Shown here piece after piece: positions 1-58,598 of a DNA stretch of 64,000 bases. The stretch lies in contig BROI01000034.1 of assembly GCA_027923505.1 (NCBI GenBank), positions 62,001 through 126,000 of the forward strand, read 5' to 3'. Below the pieces are notes generated by a model that was not told the origin of the DNA, made no database searches, and saw nothing but the letters and a program-made list of their open reading frames with translations. The stretch comes from Mayamaea pseudoterrestris (lineage: Eukaryota). Within the stretch, counting starts at the first letter, position 1. Each line of letters starts with the position of its first letter. Made by a program: the position numbers and the translations under genes.

Positions 1-3000
1 AGGTGTAGAAGCTATTACTATGCCCTGAGACTCCGCACATTTAACAACTGGTTGAATGTGCCAGCCCTGCTCCCTTTTTGGTTGCAGGGATCACCAGCAT
101 TGCCTGCTGAGCCCTCCAATATCTTTCATTTTATGTTTGTTGTCATGATGGGCCAATAAGTTGGTCAGTTGCACCTCAGTATCCATCACCATGGTACGCC
201 ACTGTTACACTGAGCCTACCAACAACTTGTTGGATCTGCCAGAGCTGCCAGCAGTGCTCCTCAAGTGGCAAGTGAGACTTCCAAAATGGCCTCCAGACCC
301 CAAAACACATCAAACATGGACTGTAACAGTGAATGGGACTCATAGACTTGTCCAGTTGGGGTGGAAGCCATCACTATGCCCTGACACTCGGCACATTCAA
401 CAACTGGTAGAATGTGCCAGCCCGGCTCCCTTTTTGGCTGCAGGGATCATCAGCAGTGCCTGCTGATCCCTCCAATTTATTTCAAATTGGTTTGTTGTCA
501 TGATGGGCCATAAGTTGGTCAGTTGCACCTCAGTATCCATAACCGTGTATGCCATGGTGAGACTCAGCTGATCCTACAACTTGTTGGATCTGCCAGCAGT
601 GCACCTCAAGTGGCAAGTGAGACTTTTATAATGGCCTGCAAACCCCATAATACAATGCACATGGACTGTTACAGTGAATGGGACTCAAAGACTTGTCCAT
701 TGGGGTGTGGAAGCCATCACTATGCCCTGAGACTCCGCACATTCAACAACTGGTTGAATGTGCCAGTCCTGCTCCCTTTGTGGCTACAGGGATCTTCAGC
801 ATTCCCTGCTTAACCCTCCAATATGTTTCAAATAGGTTTGTTGTCATTATGGGCCATAAGTTGATCAATTGCACCTCAGTATCCATCGCCATGTATGCAA
901 TGATGATTCTGAGCAGATAACAACTTGTTGGATCTGCCAGCAGTGTACCTCAAGTGGCAAGTGAGACTTCCAAAATGGCCTCCAGACCCCATAATACAAC
1001 GTACATGGACTGTAACAGTGAATGGGACTCAAAGACATGACCAATTGGGTGTGAAAGCCATCACTATGCCCTGAGACTCTGCACATTCAACAACTGGTTA
1101 AATGTGCCAGCCCTGCTCCTTTTGTGGCTGCAAGGATCATCAGCATTGCTCGCTGAGCCCTCCAATATAATTCAAATAGGTTTGTTGTCATGATGGGCCA
1201 TAAGTTGGTCAATTGCACCTCAGTATCCATAACCGTGTATGCCATGGTGAGACTCAGCCGATCCTACAACTTGTTGGATCTGCCAGCAGTGCACCTCAAG
1301 TGGCAAGTGAGACTTTTATAATGGCCTGCAAACCCCATAATACAATGCACATGGACTGTTACAGTGAATGGGACTCAAAGACTTGTCCATTGGGGTGTGG
1401 AAGCCATCACTATGCCCTGAGACTCCGCACATTCAACAACTGGTTGAATGTGCCAGCCATGCTCCCTTTTGGCTGCAGGGATCATCAGCATTGCCTGCTG
1501 AGCCCTCCCAATCCTTTTCATATCATGTTTGTTGTCATGGTGGGCCATAAGTTGGTCAGTTGCACCTCCGTATCCTTCACCATGTATGGTGAGACTGAGC
1601 AAATCCAACAACTTGTTGGATCTGCCAGTGGTGCACTTCAAATGGCAAGTGAGACTTCCAAAATGGCCTGGAGACCCCATAATACAACTCACTTGGACTG
1701 TAACAGTGAATGGGACTCAAAGACATGACCAATTGGGTGCGAAAGCCATCACTATACCCTGAGACTCAACACATTCAACAACTGGTTGAATGTGCCAGCC
1801 CTGCTCCTTTTGTGGCTGCAGGGATCATCAGCATTGCTCGCTGAGCCCTCCAATATAATGCAAATAGGTTTGTTGTCATGATGGGCCATAAGTTGGTCAA
1901 TTGCACCTCAGTATCCATAACCGTGTATGCCATGGTGAGACTCAGCTGATCCTACAACTTGTTGGATCTGCCAGCAGTGCACCTCAAGTGGCAAGTGAGA
2001 CTTCCAAAATGGCCTGCAGACCCCATAATACAACTAACATGGTCTGTTACAGTGAATTGGACTCAAAGACTTGTCCATTGGGGTGTGGAAGCCATCACTA
2101 TGCCCTGAGACTCCGCACATTCAACAACTGGTTGAATGTGCCAGTCCTGCTCCCTTTGTGGCTACAGGGATCATCAGCATTGCCTGCTAAACCCTCCAAT
2201 ATGTTTCAAATAGGTTTGTTGTCATTATGGGCCATAAGTTGGTCAATTGCACCTCAATATCCATCACCGTGTATGCCATGATGATTCTGAGCAGATAACA
2301 ACTTGTTGGATCTGCTAGCGGTGCACCATTAGTGCCAAGGGAGACTTCTAAAATGACCGAACCCAAAAACAACAAAAATGAACGTGAACAGTGAAGGGGA
2401 CTCATAGACTTGTCCTTTGGGGTGTGGAAGCCATCACTTTTATGCCCTGAGACTCCGCACATTCAACAACTGGTTGGATGTGCCAGCCATGCTCTCTTTG
2501 TGGCAGCATGAATCATCAGCATTGCCTGCTGAGCCCTCCAATATCTTTCATATTATGTTTGTTGTCATGATGGGCCAATAAGTTGGTCAGTTGCAACTCA
2601 GTATCCATAATGCCATGATGATTCTGAGCAGATAACAACTTGTTGGATCTGCCAGCAGTGCCCCTCAAGTGGCAAGTGAGACTTCCAAAATGGCCTCCAG
2701 ACCCCATAATACAACGTACATGGACTGTAACAGTGAATGGGACTCAAAGACATGACCAATTGGGTGTGGAAGCCATCACAATGCCCTGAGACGCAGCACA
2801 TTCAACAACTGGTTGAATGTGCCAGCCCTGCTCCTTTGTGGCTGCAGGGATCATCAGCATTGCTCGCTGAGCCATCCAATATAATTCAAATAGGTTTGTT
2901 GTCATGATGGGCCATTAGTTGGTCAATTGCACCTCAGTATCCATAACCATGTATGCCATGGTGAGACTCAGCCGATCCTACAACTTGTTGGATCTGCCAG

Positions 3001-6000
3001 CATTACACCTAAGTGGCAAGTGAGACTTCCAAAATGGCCTGCAGACCCCATAATACAACAAACATGGACTGTAACAGTGAATGGGACTCAAAGACTTGTC
3101 CATTGGGGTGTGGAAGCCATCACTATGCCCTGAGACTCAGCACATTCAACAACTGGTTGAATGTGCCAGCCCTGCTCCCTTTAAGGCTACAGGGATCATC
3201 AGCATTGCCTGCTGAGCCCCCTAATATCTTTCATATTATGTTTGTTGTCATGATGGGCCAATAAGGTGGTCAGTTGCAACTCAGTATCCATCACCATGTA
3301 TGCCATGGTGAGACTGAGCAAATCCAACAACTTGTTGGATCTGCCAGCAGTGCACCTCAAGTGGCAAGTGAGACTTCCAAAATGGCCTCCAGACCCCATA
3401 ATACAACGTACATGGACTGTAACAGTGAATGGGACTCAAAGACATGACCAATTGGGTGTGGAAGCCATCACAATGCCCTGAGACTCAGCACATTCAACAA
3501 CTAGTTGAATGTGCCAGCCCTGCTCCTTTTGTGGCTGCAGGGATCATCAGCATTGCTCGCTGAGCCCTCCAATATAATTCAAATAGGTTTGTTGTCATGA
3601 TGGGCCATAAGTTGGTCAATTGCACCTCAGTATCCATAACCGTGTATGCCATGGTGAGACTCAGCCGATCCTACAACTTGTTGGATCTGCCAGCAGTGCA
3701 CCTAAGTGGCAAGTGAGACTTCTTAAATGGCCTGCAGACCCCATAATACAACAAACATGGACTGTAACAGTGAATGGGACTCAAAGACGTTTTCTCTTAG
3801 GTGCGAAAGCCATCACTATGCACTAAGACTCCGCACATTCAACAACTGGTTAAATGTGCCAGCCCTGCTCCTTTATTTGCTGCAGGGATCATCAGCATTG
3901 CCTGCTGAGCCCTCCCAATCCTTTTCATATCATGTTTGTTGTCATGATGGGCCATAAGATGGTCAGTTGCACCTCAGTATCCATCACCATGTATCCAATG
4001 GTGAGACTGAGCCGACCCCACGACTTGTTGGATCTGCCAGCGGTGCACCTCAAGTGGCAAACGAGACTTAAAAATTGTCTCCAGACCCCATAATACAACG
4101 CACATGGACTGTAACAGTGAATGGGACTCATCAACTTGTTCTTTTGGGTGCGGAAGCCATCACTATGCCCTGAGACTCTGCACATTCAACAACTGGTTGA
4201 AGGTGCCAGCCCTGCCCCCTTTTTCGCTGCAGGGATCATCAGCATTGCCTGCTGAGCCCTCCAATATCTTTCATATCATGTTTGTTGTCATGATGGGCCA
4301 TAAGTTGGTCAGTTGCACCTCAGTATCCATCACCGTGTATGCCATGGTGAGACTCAGCCGACCCTACAACTTATTGGTTCTGCCAGCAGTGCACCTCAAG
4401 TGGCAAGTGAGACTTCCAAAATGGCCTGCAGACCCCATAATACAACAAACATGGACTGTAACAGTGAATGGGACTCATAGACTTGTCCATTGGGGTGTGG
4501 AAGCCATCACTATGCCCTGAGACTCCGCACATTCAACAACTGGTTGAATGTGCCAGCCCTGCTCCCTTTGTGGCTGCAGGGATCATCAGCATTGCCTGCT
4601 GAGCCCTCCAATATATTAAAAATAGGTTGGTTGTCATGATGGGCCATGAGTTGGTCAGTTGCACCTCAGTATCCTTCGCCATGTATGCCACGGTGAGACT
4701 GAGCAGATCCAACAACTTGTTGGATCTGCCAGTGGTGCACCTCAAGTGGCAAGTGAGACTTCCAAAATGGCCTGCAAACCCCATAATACAACAAATATGG
4801 ACTGTAACAGAGAATGGGACTCATAGACTTGTTCTTTTGGGTGTAGTGGCCATCACTATGCCCTGAGACTCCGCACATTCAACAACTAGTTGAATGTGCC
4901 AGCCCTGCTCCCTTTGTGGCTACAGGGATCATCAGCATTGCCTGCTGAGCCCTCCAATATCTTTCATATCATATTTGTTGTCATGACGGGCCATAAGATG
5001 GTCAGTTGCACCTCGGTATCCATCACCATGTATGCCATGGCGAGACTGAGCTGACCCTACAACTTGTTGGATCTGCCAGTGGTGCACCTCAAGTGGCAAG
5101 TGAGACTTCCAAAATGGCCTCCAGACCCCATAATACAACCAACGGGGACTGTAACAGTGAATGGGACTCATAGACTTTTTCTTTTGGGTTTGGAAGCCAT
5201 AACTATGCCCTGAGACTCAGCACATTCAACAACTGGTTAAATGTGCCAGCCCTGCTCCCTTTGTGGCTGCAGGGAGCATCCGCATTGCCTGCTGAGCCCT
5301 CCCATATATTGGAAATAGGCATGTTGTCATGATGGGCCATATGTTGGTCAGTTGCATCTCAGTAACCATCACAATGTATGCCATGGTGAGACTCCGCCAA
5401 CCCTACAACTTGTTGGATCTGCTAGTGGTGCACCTCAAGTGGCAAGCAAGACTTCTAAAATGGCCTGCAAACCCCATAATACAACAAACATGGACTTGAG
5501 CAGTGAATGGGACTCATAGACTTCTCCATTGAGGTGTAGAAGCTATTACTATGCCCTGAGACTCCGCACATTTAACAACTGGTTGAATGTGCCAGCCCTG
5601 CTCCCTTTTTGGTTGCAGGGATCACCAGCATTGCCTGCTGAGCCCTCCAATATCTTTCATTTTATGTTTGTTGTCATGATGGGCCAATAAGTTGGTCAGT
5701 TGCACCTCAGTATCCATCACCATGGTACGCCACTGTTACACTGAGCCTACCAACAACTTGTTGGATCTGCCAGCAGTGCACCTCAAGTGGCAAGTGAGAC
5801 TTCCAAAATGGCCTCCAGACCCCAAAACACATCAAACATGGTTGTAACAGTGAATGGGACTCATCAACTTGTCGAGTTGGGGTGGAAGCCATCACTATGC
5901 CCTGACACTCAGCACAATCAACAACTGGTTGAATGTGCCAGCCCTGCTCCCTTTTTGGCTGCAGGGATCATCAGCAGTGCCTGCTGATCCCTCCAATTTA

Positions 6001-9000
6001 TTTTAAATAGGTTTGTTGTCATGATGGGCCATAAGTTGGTCAGTTGCACCTCAGTATCCATAACCGTGTATGCCATGGTGAGACTCAGCTGATCCTACAA
6101 CTTGTTGGATCTGCCAGCAGTGCACCTCAAGTGGCAAGTGAGACTTTTATAATGGCCTGCAAACCCCATAATACAATGCACATGGACTGTTACAGTGAAT
6201 GGGACTCAAAGACTTGTCCATTGGGGTGTGGAAGCCATCACTATGCCCTGAGACTCCGCACATTCAACAACTGGTTGAATGTGCCAGCCATGCTCCCTTT
6301 GTGGCTACAGGGATCATCAGCATTGCCTGCTAAACCCTCCAATATGTTTCAAATAGGTTTGTTGTCATTATGGGCCATAAGTTGATCAATTGCACCTCAG
6401 TATCCATCGCCATGTATGCAATGATGATTCTGAGCAGATAACAACTTGTTGGATCTGCCAGCAGTGTACCTCAAGTGGCAAGTGAGACTTCCAAAATGGC
6501 CTCCAGACCCCATAATACAACGTACATGGACTGTAACAGTGAATGGGACTCAAAGACATGACCAATTGGGTGTGAAAGCCATCACTATGCCCTGAGACTC
6601 TGCACATTCAACAACTGGTTAAATGTGCCAGCCCTGCTCCTTTTGTGGCTGCAAGGATCATCAGCATTGCTCGCTGAGCCCTCCAATATAATTCAAATAG
6701 GTTTGTTGTCATGATGGGCCATAAGTTGGTCAATTGCACCTCAGTATCCATCACCGTGTATGCCATGGTGAGACTCAGCCGATCCTACAACTTGTTGGAT
6801 CTGCCAGCAGTGCACCTCAAGTGGCAAGTGAGACTTTTATAATGGCCTGCAAACCCCATAATACAATGCACATGGACTGTTACAGTGAATGGGACTCAAA
6901 GACTTGTCCATTGGGGTGTGGAAGCCATCACTATGCCCTGAGACTCCGCACATTCAACAACTGGTTGAATGTGCCAGCCATGCTCCCTTTTGGCTGCAGG
7001 GATCATCAGCATTGCCTGCTGAGCCCTCCCAATCCTTTTCATATCATGTTTGTTGTCATGGTGGGCCATAAGTTGGTCAGTTGCACCTCCGTATCCTTCA
7101 CCATGTATGGTGAGACTGAGCAAATCCAACAACTTGTTGGATCTGCCAGTGGTGCACTTCAAATGGCAAGTGAGACTTCCAAAATGGCCTGGAGACCCCA
7201 TAATACAACTCACTTGGACTGTAACAGTGAATGGGACTCAAAGACATGACCAATTGGGTGCGAAAGCCATCACTATACCCTGAGACTCAACACATTCAAC
7301 AACTGGTTGAATGTGCCAGCCCTGCTCCTTTTGTGGCTGCAGGGATCATCAGCATTGCTCGCTGAGCCCTCCAATATAATGCAAATAGGTTTGTTGTCAT
7401 GATGGGCCATAAGTTGGTCAATTGCACCTCAGTATCCATAACCGTGTATGCCATGGTGAGACTCAGCTGATCCTACAACTTGTTGGATCTGCCAGCAGTG
7501 CACCTCAAGTGGCAAGTGAGACTTCCAAAATGGCCTGCAGACCCCATAATACAACTAACATGGTCTGTTACAGTGAATTGGACTCAAAGACTTGTCCATT
7601 GGGGTGTGGAAGCCATCACTATGCCCTGAGACTCCGCACATTCAACAACTGGTTGAATGTTCCAGCCATGCTCCCTTTGTGGCTACAGGGATCATCAGCA
7701 TTGCCTGCTAAACCCTCCAATATGTTTCAAATAGGTTTGTTGTCATGATGGGCCATAAGTTGGTCAATTGCACCTCAATATCCATCACCGTGTATGCCAT
7801 GATGATTCTGAGCAGATAACAACTTGTTGGATCTGCTAGCGGTGCACCATTAGTGCCAAGGGAGACTTCTAAAATGACCTGCAGACCCCATAATACAACA
7901 AAAATGAACGTGAACAGTGAAGGGGACTCATAGACTTGTCCTTTGGGGTGTGGAAGCCATCACTTTTATGCCCTGAGACTCCGCACATTCAACAACTGGT
8001 TGGATGTGCCAGCCATGCTCTCTTTGTGGCAGCATGAATCATCAGCATTGCCTGCTGAGCCCTCCAATATCTTTCATATTATGTTTGTTGTCATGATGGG
8101 CCAATAAGTTGGTCAGTTGCAACTCAGTATCCATAATGCCATGATGATTCTGAGCAGATAACAACTTGTTGGATCTGCCAGCAGTGCCCCTCAAGTGGCA
8201 AGTGAGACTTCCAAAATGGCCTCCAGACCCCATAATACAACGTACATGGACTGTAACAGTGAATGGGACTCAAAGACATGACCAATTGGGTGTGGAAGCC
8301 ATCACAATGCCCTGAGACGCAGCACATTCAACAACTGGTTGAATGTGCCAGCCCTGCTCCTTTGTGGCTGCAGGGATCATCAGCATTGCTCGCTGAGCCA
8401 TCCAATATAATTCAAATAGGTTTGTTGTCATGATGGGCCATTAGTTGGTCAATTGCACCTCAGTATCCATAACCATGTATGCCATGGTGAGACTCAGCCG
8501 ATCCTACAACTTGTTGGATCTGCCAGCATTACACCTAAGTGGCAAGTGAGACTTCCAAAATGGCCTGCAGACCCCATAATACAACAAACATGGACTGTAA
8601 CAGTGAATGGGACTCAAAGACTTGTCCATTGGGGTGTGGAAGCCATCACTATGCCCTGAGACTCAGCACATTCAACAACTGGTTGAATGTGCCAGCCCTG
8701 CTCCCTTTAAGGCTACAGGGATCATCAGCATTGCCTGCTGAGCCCCCCAATATTTTTCATATTATGTTTGTTGTCATGATGGGCCAATAAGGTGGTCAGT
8801 TGCAACTCAGTATCCATCACCATGTATGCCATGGTGAGACTGAGCAAATCCAACAACTTGTTGGATCTGCCAGCAGTGCACCTCAAGTGGCAAGTGAGAC
8901 TTCCAAAATGGCCTCCAGACCCCATAATACAACGTACATGGACTGTAACAGTGAATGGGACTCAAAGACATGACCAATTGGGTGTGGAAGCCATCACAAT

Positions 9001-9850
9001 GCCCTGAGACTCAGCACATTCAACAACTGGTTGAATGTGCCAGCCCTGCTCCTTTTGTGGCTGCAGGGATCATCAGCATTGCTCGCTGAGCCCTCCAATA
9101 TAATTCAAATAGGTTTGTTGTCATGATGGGCCATAAGTTGGTCAATTGCACCTCAGTATCCATAACCGTGTATGCCATGGTGAGACTCAGCCGATCCTAC
9201 AACTTGTTGGATCTGCCAGCAGTGCACCTAAGTGGCAAGTGAGACTTCTTAAATGGCCTGCAGACCCCATAATACAACAAACATGGACTGTAACAGTGAA
9301 TGGGACTCAAAGACGTTTTCTCTTAGGTGCGAAAGCCATCACTATGCACTAAGACTCCGCACATTCAACAACTGGTTAAATGTGCCAGCCCTGCTCCTTT
9401 ATTTGCTGCAGGGATCATCAGCATTGCCTGCTGAGCCCTCCCAATCCTTTTCATATCATGTTTGTTGTCATGATGGGCCATAAGATGGTCAGTTGCACCT
9501 CAGTATCCATCACCATGTATCCAATGGTGAGACTGAGCCGACCCCACGACTTGTTGGATCTGCCAGCGGTGCACCTCAAGTGGCAAACGAGACTTAAAAA
9601 TTGTCTCCAGACCCCATAATACAACGCACATGGACTGTAACAGTGAATGGGACTCATCAACTTGTTCTTTTGGGTGCGGAAGCCATTACTATGCCCTGAG
9701 ACTCTGCACATTCAACAACTGGTTGAAGGTGCCAGCCCTGCCCCCTTTTTCGCTGCAGGGATCATCAGCATTGCCTGATGAGCCCTCCAATATCTTTCAT
9801 ATCATGTTTGTTGTCATGATGGGCCATAAGTTGGTCAGTTGCACCTCAGT
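1..9850. repeat. 16-monomer higher-order repeat (~5521-5531 bp): copy 1 at 1-5531, partial copy 2 at 5532-~9850
   Basis: AGGTGTAGAAGCTATTACTATGCC at 1 recurs at 5532. Near-identical ORF-track entries recur at +5521 (523/6044, 1213/6734) and +5526 (2516/8042, 4104/9630). Identity to copy 1 breaks down after ~9850. Confidence 0.95.
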
Positions 9851-11650
9851 ATCTATCACCGTGTATGCCATGATGAGACTCAGCCAACCCAACAACTTGT
9901 TGGATCTGCCAGCAGTGCACCTCAAGTGGCAAGTGAGACTTCCAAAATGGCCTCCAGACCCCATATTTCACAAACATGGACTGTAACAGTGAATGGGACT
10001 CAAAGACGTGTCCATTGGGGTGTAGAAGCCATTACTATGCCCTGAGACTCCGCACATTCAACCACTGGTTGAATGTGCCAGCCCTGCTCCTTTTGTGGCT
10101 GCAGGGATCATCAGCATTGCCTGCTGAGCCCTCCAATATAGTGCAAATAGGTTTGTTGTCATGATGGGCCATAAGTTGGTCAGTTGCACCTCAGTATCCT
10201 TCACCCTGTATGCCATGGTGAGACTGAGCAAATCCAACAACTAGTTGGATCTGCCAGATCTGCCAGATCTGCCAGCAGTGCACCTCAAGTGGCAAGTGAG
10301 ACTTTTAAAATGGCCTCTAAACCCCATAATCCAACTAACATGGACTGTAACAGTGAATGGGATTCATAGACTTGTTCATTGGGGTGTGGAAGCCATCACT
10401 ATGTCCTGAGAATCCGCACATTCAACAACTGGTTGAATGTGCCAGCCCTGCTCCCTTTTTGGTTGCAGGGATCATCAGCATTGCCTGCTGAGCCCTCCAA
10501 TATCTTTCATACTATATTTGTTGTCATGATGGGCCATAAGATGGTCAGTTGCACCTTGGTATCCATCACCATGTATGTCATTATGAGACTGAACCAACCC
10601 TACAACTTGTTGGATCTGCCAGCATTGCACCTCAAGTGGCAAGTGAGACTTCCAAAATGGCCTGCGAACCCCATAATACAACAAACATGGACTGTAACAG
10701 TGAATGGGACTCAAAGACATGACCAATTGGGTGTGGAAGCCATTACAATGCCCTGAGACTCAGCACATTCAACAACTGGTTGAATGTGCCAGCCCTGCTC
10801 CTTTTGTGGCTGCAGGGATCATCAGCATTGCTCGCTGAGCCCTCCAATATAATTCAAATAGGTTTGTTGTCATGATGGGCCATAAGTTGGTTAGTTGCAC
10901 CTCAGTATCCATCACCGTGTATGCCATGGTGAGACTCAGCCGACCCTACAACTTGTTGGATCTGCCAGCGGTGCACCTCAAGTGGCAAGTGAGACTTTCA
11001 AAATGGCCTGCAGACCCCATAATACAACAAACATGGACTGTAACAGTGAATTTGACTCAAAGACTTGTTCTTTTAGGTGTGAAAGCCATCACTATGCCCT
11101 AAGACTCCACACATTCAACAACTGGTTGAATGTGCCAGCCCTGCTCCCTTGTGGCTGCAGGGATCATCAGCATTGCCTGCTGAGCCCTCCCAATCCTTTT
11201 CATATCATGTTTGTTGTCATGATGGGCCATAGTTGGTCAGTTGCACCTCAGTATCCATCACCATGTACGCCATGGTGAGACTGAGCAGATCCAACAACTT
11301 GTTGGATCTGCCAGCAGTGCACCTCAAGTGGCAAGTGAGACTTCCAAAATGGCCTGCAGACCCCATAATACAATGCACATGGACTGTAACAGTGAATGGG
11401 ACTCAAAAACTTGTCCATTGGGGTGTGGAAGCCATCATCATGCTTTAAGACTCCGCACATTCAACAACTGGTTGAATGTGCTTTCCCTGCTCCCTTTGTG
11501 GTGCAGGGATCATCAGCACTGCTTGCTGAGCCATCCCAATCCGTTTCATATCATGTTTGTTGTCATGATGGGCCATAAGTTGGTCAGTAGCACCTCAGTA
11601 TCCATCACCATGATGTATGCCACAGTGACGAGCAGATCCAACAACTTGGA
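1..11650. repeat. Tandem satellite array, ~345-346 bp monomer, ~34 copies, open at the left window edge
   Basis: The landmark GGCCATAAGTTGGTCAGTTGCACCTCAGTATCC recurs about every 345 bp (e.g. ~506, 852, 1196, 1543, 1885 ... 11571). Frequent 1-bp indels between copies indicate non-coding DNA. Confidence 0.98.
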
Positions 11651-11719
11651 ACTTTAAGAGGTCTCACCAATGGTATTGCAGCATCATGAGGCACCAGCCA
11701 GGCCAACCTTCTTGTAGAG

Positions 11720-35429: not shown

Positions 35430-35711
35430 TTAGCTTTAAAATTAATAGAAATACATTTACAAAACATGTACTGGAAAGTTGTACAATTGAATCGTCAAAA
35501 GCTAAGCGACTTTGACCGGTGGTCGCCGCCCATCGATCAGCCCGGCATCGTTATATTCATCCATCTTAGCTTTAAAATTAATAGAAACACATTTACAAAA
35601 CATGTACTGGAAAGCTGTACCTTTTATCGTCAAAAGCAAAGCGACTTTGGCTCAGCAGACCGGTGGTCACCGCCCATCGATCAGCCCGGCATCGTTATAT
35701 TCATCCATCTT
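35430..35711. repeat. Tandem duplication of a ~136-145 bp unit covering the shared 3' region of two convergent genes
   Basis: TTAGCTTTAAAATTAATAGAAA...CATCGTTATATTCATCCATCTT starts at 35430 and again at 35566, with a few substitutions and a small indel. Confidence 0.92.
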
Positions 35712-46364: not shown

Positions 46365-46498
46365 ACAGTGCCAATAACTATGATTTATTTCACAGTTATT
46401 GGCACTACATTATGGACCACAGTGTCAAAAATTTTGATTTTCAAAGTTCTTGGCGCTACACTTTGGCTCACAGTGCCAAAAACTTTGATTTTCAAAGT
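46365..46498. repeat. About 2.5 copies of a 51-54 bp palindromic unit upstream of the NDK-like gene
   Basis: Units begin AGTGCCAA/AGTGTCAA at 46367, 46421 and 46472. Unit 1 has a perfect 13-bp stem AGTGCCAATAACT/AGTTATTGGCACT. Confidence 0.85.
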
Positions 46499-57485: not shown

Positions 57486-58598
57486 ATGGTCGCCGACGGA
57501 AGACGGAAACGGATGGCTGCGCAGGAAGAAGTCTTACCGGTACTGTCAGCATCGCATCGACGCGAGAGCATTCATATCCGCTCCACAAGAAACCCAACGC
57601 AAGAGCGTCCGGAGTCGCAGATTTTCTCTCCAATGAATATGGAATCGGCATTTGTAAATGCGCAAACTGCACTTTTGGATCAAACATGGACGATTCATCG
57701 CGCAAGTCCATTGATAACGCCGCTGTCGCTTGCTGCCATTCAAGCATCCTTGTCGAGGACCAAAGATATGGATGCTCAGTGGCTCGTAATCGATAACGAG
57801 CACGACGACGATTCAAATACTCTCTGCGAGTCGTCTTTTGCGGGCGAAGCGACAGTTGCCGATAACGTAGCAGGACAACAGAACCCGATCAAACGACAGC
57901 GAATCGACAAGAGCGACGACGTTCCAAAGATCACATCGAACATGCAGCATTTGAGACTACGTCATCATGCCGACAGCAAAATCTCGGCCACTGTCGTCTT
58001 TTGTTTTGCGAAATGGACGAATGACGAGATATCCAAAGATCCAGCAGCTATTCAACGCTTTGAATTCTGCGTCGTGCGAGGCGCCAAGAGTTGCTACGAA
58101 AGCATCTTTTGCTGGATGGAGCAGATATCTGGTAACCACATGAACCGGCGACCCGTTTCGCTTCCACCGAGTTTCCTGGCGAACATGTTGTATGATTGGC
58201 TCGTTCAGATGCAGGAACAAACGGATCGGTCATTGTCGTCCGTGGAATTCAAGTTTGCACCTCCTGCAAGTGTCCAAGGAAAGAACGTCACCGACGTATT
58301 GTGCGCCTTTACCCCAACAGACTTGTATGCGCTGTGTCAACTTCAGATGGAACAAGAAGCCAAGGATGAAAATGCTGGCAAGATAGCTGCACTAGAGCAA
58401 CAACCGTTGTTGCTCCGAGCGGTGTATTTACATGCACGCGCCACCATGTGTATACGTTTGCAATACTTTATGCTTACACAAGTGACTTGGGAGGCCGCAG
58501 CGTTGGGCTCGGGTGGTCACGTGAAACCTAAGTGTGGCAAAAGTCTGGCGTCCTTACTGAAAGCGATAGGATCGTTTGTGGCTGGTGACAAGGAGTAG
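57486..58598 (+). CDS. Divergent CENP-L/Fta1-like kinetochore (CCAN) protein candidate
   Basis: Motif order resembles CENP-L: LLDQTWTIHRASPL; VVRGAKS..IFCW..PVSLPPSFLANMLYDW; VEFKF..P; AVYLH..IRL..LTQV..A..G..GHVK. The start may be 57486, 57513 or 57633. Confidence 0.6.
   Translation: MVADGRRKRMAAQEEVLPVLSASHRRESIHIRSTRNPTQERPESQIFSPMNMESAFVNAQTALLDQTWTIHRASPLITPLSLAAIQASLSRTKDMDAQWLVIDNEHDDDSNTLCESSFAGEATVADNVAGQQNPIKRQRIDKSDDVPKITSNMQHLRLRHHADSKISATVVFCFAKWTNDEISKDPAAIQRFEFCVVRGAKSCYESIFCWMEQISGNHMNRRPVSLPPSFLANMLYDWLVQMQEQTDRSLSSVEFKFAPPASVQGKNVTDVLCAFTPTDLYALCQLQMEQEAKDENAGKIAALEQQPLLLRAVYLHARATMCIRLQYFMLTQVTWEAAALGSGGHVKPKCGKSLASLLKAIGSFVAGDKE

Follow-up and report, generated by a model that had tools for sequence, protein, structure and literature searches.

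The stretch of Mayamaea pseudoterrestris DNA analyzed here (the window; 64,000 nucleotides, G000:C34:62001-126000 of a 30.6-Mb assembly in 41 contigs) begins within a tandem array whose repeat unit carries two long palindromes. Whether dyads in satellite DNA have a function or are by-products is debated, usually from folding scores, and the locus raises the question of whether these two are kept for something that they do or merely reflect the way in which such repeats are copied. A sequence-only reading of the window had proposed that structure was maintained, either as a cruciform or protein-binding box present once per nucleosome length or as a structured repeat RNA.

The array, its monomer and the two palindromes

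The 346-bp satellite filled window positions 1..11648 (+ strand, 33.7 units; the whole array, G000:C34:61730-73648, has 34.4 units), and the window beyond base 11648 consisted of dense eukaryotic genes. The nearest Atlas cluster of the first of these genes was eukaryotic, with Bacillariophyta as its commonest members. The array end was abrupt (11630..11648, +) and lay three bases beyond the centre of a copy of palindrome B, described below. Units were head to tail and non-coding, with subfamilies and higher-order repeats, as is characteristic of a satellite; protein coding by the repeat was ruled out because unit lengths of 346-357 shift the frame, and the longest ORFs in the window were 174 aa. 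The GC content of the array (47-49%) equaled that of the genes and was average for the genome. CpG observed/expected was 0.14-0.18 vs about 1.0-1.2 in the adjoining genes, a deficit which we infer to be a scar of methylation. A higher-order duplication spanned 367..10027 (+), repeating every 16 monomers (about 5.5 kb), and since its two blocks were 98.8% identical over 4.5 kb the copies in the window are not independent. Small tandem repeats were also present between the window genes (51 bp x 2.6 at 46365-46498 and 136 bp x 2 at 35430-35711), as was a lone palindrome with 10-bp arms near window position 58395 (offset 46395 in 12001-64000).

The monomer at 4503..4848 (+) was dimeric: its homologous halves, about 170 and 177 bp long, were 64% identical in the family consensus. 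When the halves were aligned, 105 of 165 columns were identical, including 65 of the 114 downstream of the palindrome box, and the score of this tail alignment was reached by 1 of 300 shuffles; the earlier caveat that the halves align poorly outside the box was therefore overly cautious. At the level of sequence these alignments show the unit to be an old dimer of ~173 bp with one palindrome per half.

Palindrome A (4527..4553) had 11-bp arms in this monomer and 13-bp arms around a 1-nt centre in other subfamilies. Palindrome B (4703..4729) was a perfect copy, with a second perfect B at 11285..11311. All seven quoted strings were found where they had been placed, and the reported 176/170 spacing was reproduced, with A starting at 4527, B at 4703 and the next A at 4873, and in terms of layout the claim of one site for each nucleosome-length half-unit holds. 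Both hairpins are real: dyads with arms of at least 10 bp numbered 2 per monomer vs 0.01 in 200 dinucleotide shuffles. The stems of A and B had been said to differ by two compensatory pairs; the differences were indeed all compensated, but at three pairs (4, 7 and 12). Family-wide, the consensus palindromes have arms of 13 bp (A) and 14 bp (B) around one base, and A took on the appearance of an 11-bp stem with a 5-nt loop because the window subfamily is mismatched at A pair 12. That B is disrupted in many copies was borne out, since it was perfect in only 2 of 33 full window monomers (A in 16 of 33). The description of the monomer as packed with dyads did not hold once A and B were removed, when arms of at least 6 bp numbered 4 vs 2.1 in shuffles (p=0.18) and arms of at least 8 bp 1 vs 0.13 (p=0.13). 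The 8-bp dyad at 3291..3311, found in the second half-unit only, is real and by this measure does not exceed the shuffle level.

A structured repeat RNA, either retrozyme-like or a precursor of hairpin small RNAs, would be selected for its fold. RNA folding of the monomer at 4503-4848 gave z scores of -4.2 (+ strand) and -3.5 (- strand), mirrored changes occurred in the stems, and the word CTGATGA was present on the minus strand of half one. Retrozymes have a hammerhead core in the unit and abundant monomer-length RNA. Inspection by eye around CTGATGA gave no hammerhead layout, with no GAAA after the following stem, and the word was not kept in half two; Rfam returned no matches at gathering score in the window, and four chance-level matches on 10739-11700 (best E 0.91). 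The folding z dropped to -1.9 (DNA energies) without A and B. No RNA run was among the sequencing runs listed as carrying the repeat, which says nothing either way about transcription. Neither consensus arm of A or B contained G-U, and changes that keep G-U pairing showed no strand bias (observed/expected 44/74 and 76/82 for A, 72/74 and 78/82 for B). Perfect Watson-Crick arms lacking both G-U and strand bias point to the DNA level, and we regard selection on an RNA fold as highly improbable.

Change in the palindrome arms within and between lineages

The satellite formed short arrays at more than 40 places in the genome. The main alignment contained 424 full monomers (402 distinct) taken from BLAST hits of at least 320 nt in 33 arrays on 14 contigs, and was extended with 123 monomers from 10 held-out arrays (eight found without a palindrome probe and two with an A probe) and then with 50 from 4 more. 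The sample is non-random: a single window monomer seeded the first hits, and an exact-B probe brought in two of the subfamilies, which biases the four-subfamily test described below in favor of B. Exact A sites numbered 414 + 148 genome-wide, the 148 belonging to a fifth lineage found with the A probe, and exact B sites numbered 249.

Decay was common in single copies. Perfect 11-bp stems were present in 229 of 402 monomers for A and in 148 of 402 for B. Among 554 stem changes in the 402 monomers there were 9 same-branch doubles, of which 3 were mirrored, and no covariation above chance was found among these individual copies. On the tree of 402 monomers B accumulated 14.2 changes per site (rank 175/347); its right arm was slow (7.8 changes per site) and its left arm was not (17.8 vs about 15 elsewhere, tip ratio 1.19), and a test for depletion of B changes in clades spanning three arrays failed (p=0.39). 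In one lineage (C12:214.5k), which had grown to at least 8-9 copies, B was broken and A was down to 10 bp. Palindrome A was the slowest-changing part of the monomer, its 11-bp stems showing 7.9 changes per site vs 15.4 elsewhere (rank 5/347). Changes in A numbered 183 at tips and 2 in clades spanning at least 3 arrays, compared with 3118 and 255 for the rest of the monomer (p=2e-4), and the depletion was deeper in clades of 2-14 (about 0.1-0.3) than at tips (0.66). At the A centre 16 of 23 changes were A<->T, as a flip of the site would give.

Between lineages the arms were nearly frozen. When four subfamily consensuses, 5-19% apart, were compared, variation was seen in 2 of 52 arm columns vs 94 of 295 elsewhere (Fisher 6e-6), the arm mask being the best of 347 shifted masks, and against flanks within 20-40 nt the difference was still seen (Fisher 0.0005-0.005). 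For A alone, which had not been used to find those arrays, 1 of 26 columns varied vs 93 of 293 others (p=0.001). In the held-out array consensuses 3 of 26 columns varied in A, 10 of 26 in B and 162 of 293 elsewhere (ranks 13 for A and 9 for B of 347 positions), with 7 of the B differences falling within one array. One held-out array revealed the fifth lineage, which is 27-33% diverged and differs at 80-98 of about 293 other columns. B had not been used to find this lineage, and its fifth-lineage form differed at 1 of 26 columns in three arrays and at 2 in the fourth. Here A pair 12 was A-T instead of C-G, a compensated change, and B pair 14 was G-C instead of A-T. Pooled over 575 monomers, A pair 12 read C-G in 278 and A-T in 56, and was mismatched (A-G) in 156, the mismatch being fixed in the subfamilies that contain these. 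In sum, arms slower than their flanks, a free centre and mirrored fixed changes were found for A and for an unrelated 169-bp family, and in part for B. The proposal that structure has been maintained is therefore supported over long times, with arms near-frozen between lineages, the A centre free and fixed differences compensated; it does not extend to covariation among copies or to the left arm of B in single copies.

Homogenization of the sites between subfamilies by conversion tracts was considered unlikely because the A centre and the bases beside the arms differ between subfamilies. In a separate array region (L071, G000:C22:113000-122999) most monomers were of the 348 type, and 8 of 13 carried the A core of the fifth lineage, which suggests exchange between lineages. 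Contigs from 4 sequencing runs of 2 studies carried the same repeat when aligned to one monomer; among the 36 positions listed in this comparison, two fell at A pair 12 and the A centre and none in the A 11-bp arms or B, a result to which we gave little weight as these 36 are not all of the positions and the low-depth runs may not be independent. A merged A/B pattern gave no matches in metagenome and viral contigs, a collection from which the organism's own genome may have been left out.

A neutral origin would have arm-to-arm template switching make and keep the symmetry, in a low-mutation phase of a nucleosome-phased repeat, with amplification by chance. Perfect stems can arise through template switching, as can compensations in one step (PMC8794818). 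The A<->T flips at the A centre and the many broken copies are in keeping with this account, as is the divergence of A from B, which affects 3 of 13 pairs and is compatible with the background (p=0.12). Outside the palindromes the rate profile had a weak 173-bp period with a trough at the right arms (p=0.04), and equally slow stretches occurred in palindrome-free satellites, where 27-nt windows reached 0.22-0.66 of the mean rate (the minimum for the 346-bp satellite, S1, was 0.53), so that part of the slowness may be positional. However, under unbiased copying one half of new changes would be erased and the other half mirrored, and pairs should thus change at about the background rate. Between the four subfamilies about 6-8 of 26 pairs would then be expected to have changed, while 0 mirrored and 2 single changes were seen (p=0.004 globally, 0.03-0.07 vs local flanks), and mirrored events were only 3 among the 554. 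The deepening depletion of A changes from tips to clades, the near-unchanged B in a strongly diverged lineage not found through B, and the recurrence of a palindrome as the slowest footprint of a second family also argue against neutral copying. We consider it distinctly unlikely as a full account, and leave it some room because positional slowness and sampling may contribute. The sequence data favor constraint over neutral arm copying, and sites that are near-unchanged in an otherwise drifting repeat suggest that they matter for repeat spread.

Satellite islands, neighboring elements and array ends

Arrays spanned 1-39 units, with abrupt ends that start and stop at many phases, and their flanks had no module in common on either side. 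They lay in islands, several per contig on C1 (at least six), C2, C6, C11, C12, C17, C18 and C19, together with about nine other unrelated satellites and pieces of Copia LTR elements. Island flanks were 93-96% identical between G000:C12:945800-968950 and C19:699800-714600 and between C15:715000 and C32:46500; these are allelic contigs or segmental duplications, and some arrays are hence not independent. Just left of the window a Copia-type reverse transcriptase ORF (L011:7078-9537) belonged to an element cut off by the array. The same 4 bases occur on both sides of the window array, and a target-site duplication was considered and rejected, as a further copy of the left-hand Copia continues unlike the right flank. 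The Copia LTR of about 330 bp recurred beside several arrays at differing phases; its 94 exact starts lay at many places genome-wide, a minority of them in retrieved sequences, and confinement to satellite islands was not shown. A further insertion of about 1.06 kb in the satellite (G000:C2:618502-619565, L033) was MITE-like, bearing terminal inverted repeats and what looks like a 3-bp target duplication.

Mosaic islands such as C34:49925-58835, C1:1235495-1245537 and C12:802777-816434 contained about ten unrelated, mostly CpG-poor families, meeting at abrupt junctions, whose units were 158-202 bp long or, as dimers, 346-371 bp. Common ancestry of the families was rejected, local alignment giving z of no more than 3.4 over 54 between-family pairs vs 9.4 for the two halves of the 346-bp unit, and on these sequences the families appear to be a case of convergence on nucleosome length. 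In the unrelated 169-bp satellite a palindrome with 9-bp arms was the slowest footprint (rank 1/169; 1.56 vs 3.54 changes per site), with 10 changes at its centre and one compensated variant in 4 of 73 monomers; among three subfamilies, none of 18 arm columns varied vs 48 of 150 others. The 169-bp arrays at G000:C2:464721 and C1:723937 ended at the centre of their own palindrome, the C2 junction entering a B-like half.

These observations bear on a binding box or cruciform read once per nucleosome, like a CENP-B box or a signal for CENP-A loading, the arrays being kept for a chromosomal or chromatin function. One site per ~173 bp and the same conservation of the arms would fit such a box, as would the mixing of satellites with Copia LTR elements in the islands. 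A 9-bp core, ACAA-N-TTGT, was common to B and the 169-bp satellite and was present in 8 copies of a third family. In Meloidogyne, mosaic clusters of divergent repeats with Helitrons nearby likewise have a short conserved element across families, a 19-bp box which is described as fully conserved in all CenH3-bound repeats (PMC8097292, PMC13404089), whereas the core found here occurs in two families and a variant of a third, of about ten. Dyad-symmetric centromeric satellites resemble the present one in their nucleosome length and in dyads able to form hairpins or cruciforms (PMC5889037); the dyads covered by that survey, which also sets out the dyad model, are under 10 bp and lie in CENP-A-bound arrays, while here the arms are 13-14 bp and the arrays are short with many per contig.

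Most satellite families in the islands (about ten families) lacked the 9-bp core. With several islands per contig there was no single main array per chromosome of the kind expected of a centromeric satellite, although contigs may not equal chromosomes. In another diatom, Phaeodactylum tricornutum, the mapped centromeres are described as low-GC and repeat-free (10.1101/096016), whereas the arrays here are tandem and of genome-average GC and so do not look like centromeres of that type. A dimer that reads sequence should moreover have no need of mirrored changes at three inner pairs. On balance a host box or centromere function is unlikely.

Non-autonomous Helentrons (HINE) provide another route by which such arrays could spread, as their cargo, with the palindromes as relics of subterminal repeats bound by RepHel. 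The genome contained autonomous partners in the form of four RepHel-type loci, one with its gene 1.2 kb from an array, and a HINE-like family with 66 exact end motifs genome-wide, pieces of which abutted or lay near 4 retrieved islands. The arm of B matched the subterminal repeat of this family at 10 of 12 positions, but this was a post hoc comparison, and 129 of 5000 shuffled monomers also reached 10/12 somewhere. Only 1 of the 66 exact end motifs adjoined a retrieved island of the 346-bp satellite. The Cg_HINE elements of Crassostrea gigas are similar in their short dispersed arrays of mostly 140-180-bp units and in the Helentron family in the genome; their arrays are bounded on the left and right by fixed flank modules that carry subterminal repeats (PMC7492417), whereas the arrays here, with ends at many phases, have none. 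HINE cargo was rejected on these flanks, and the Helentron explanation is very unlikely.

Two Helentron-type loci were noted in their own right. At G000:C25:~84146-92796 (L063, L064) an apparently whole element of low CpG had 11-bp subterminal inverted repeats and a RepHel ORF that spans 2373 codons and includes PIF1 and Ulp1-type domains. Behind the element lay about six non-autonomous copies in tandem, each about 370 bp long. The RepHel-type ORF at G000:C12:207854-213322 (L065, L066) had 1823 codons and low CpG, and is the one with an array 1.2 kb away; B is broken in that array.

Rearrangement breakpoints were collected by a profile walk through the arrays, giving 177 raw events and 97 after edge calls, poorly aligned flanks and duplicates were dropped. 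Sixteen of the 97 were within 5 nt of a palindrome centre vs 7.8 expected, an enrichment of about twofold (rank 3/347 shifts), and the other 81 were away from palindrome centres. Because the junction list itself gave rise to this test, we treat the result as support and not as decisive. Short duplications were also seen beside B, namely recurrent 9-nt duplications directly after its right arm in several arrays (recorded with window:1-11648) and 14-15-nt duplications of the right arm on C2.

Proposed mechanism and comparison with described repeats

The explanation to which we give roughly an even chance is that the palindromes are symmetric DNA sites kept because intact units seed new arrays, that is, by purifying selection on repeat spread. 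Under this explanation the satellite would be an ordinary, methylation-scarred repeat of nucleosome length with a symmetric DNA site in each half-unit. The sites may extrude as a hairpin or cruciform or be bound as a dyad, and would be nicked or cut by an enzyme; units with intact sites, mainly A, would then more often seed new arrays by forming circles or by strand invasion, whereas unequal exchange could expand an array locally with no need for B. Some of the mirrored changes may come from template switching between arms. Counting against this explanation, seven other satellite families had reached the same islands without a long palindrome. Frozen arms, a free A centre, mirrored fixations and decaying copies together fit selection on founder units and not on every copy.

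The nearest described case is phBglII400 of clams. It too has a two-half monomer with palindromes, abrupt junctions and breakpoints tied to the palindromes (PMC5139131), the tie being complete there, with 16 of 16 breakpoints in 12- and 10-bp palindromes (PMC5139131), whereas here 16 of 97 were near the centres of 27-29-bp palindromes. The present work also measured mirrored substitutions and constraint between lineages. A search of a partial literature library found no published account of this diatom satellite.

The repeat offers satellite dyads whose sequences give unusually good evidence for constraint, in a satellite that is otherwise ordinary. It provides a rare natural test of dyad function: its five lineages have diverged by up to a third, the two sites are paralogous, and there is a second, unrelated family. 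The intermediates of compensatory change are still present, the genome is small and nearly fully assembled, and assays for extrusion, binding and cutting are easy to set up on a site of 27 bp. A more far-reaching proposal, which we hold to be doubtful, is that the palindromes may be either a cis-acting origin of satellite spreading or a CENP-B-box-like signal of a repeat-based, multi-site centromere. The origin would be an odd palindrome, its core ACAA/ACCA-N-TTGT/TGGT, that unrelated nucleosome-length satellites have reused and that a resident rolling-circle (RepHel) or structure-specific nuclease cuts. If true, a mobilization origin or centromere signal of this kind would be new for diatoms; otherwise the palindromes would stand as a well-documented conserved motif.
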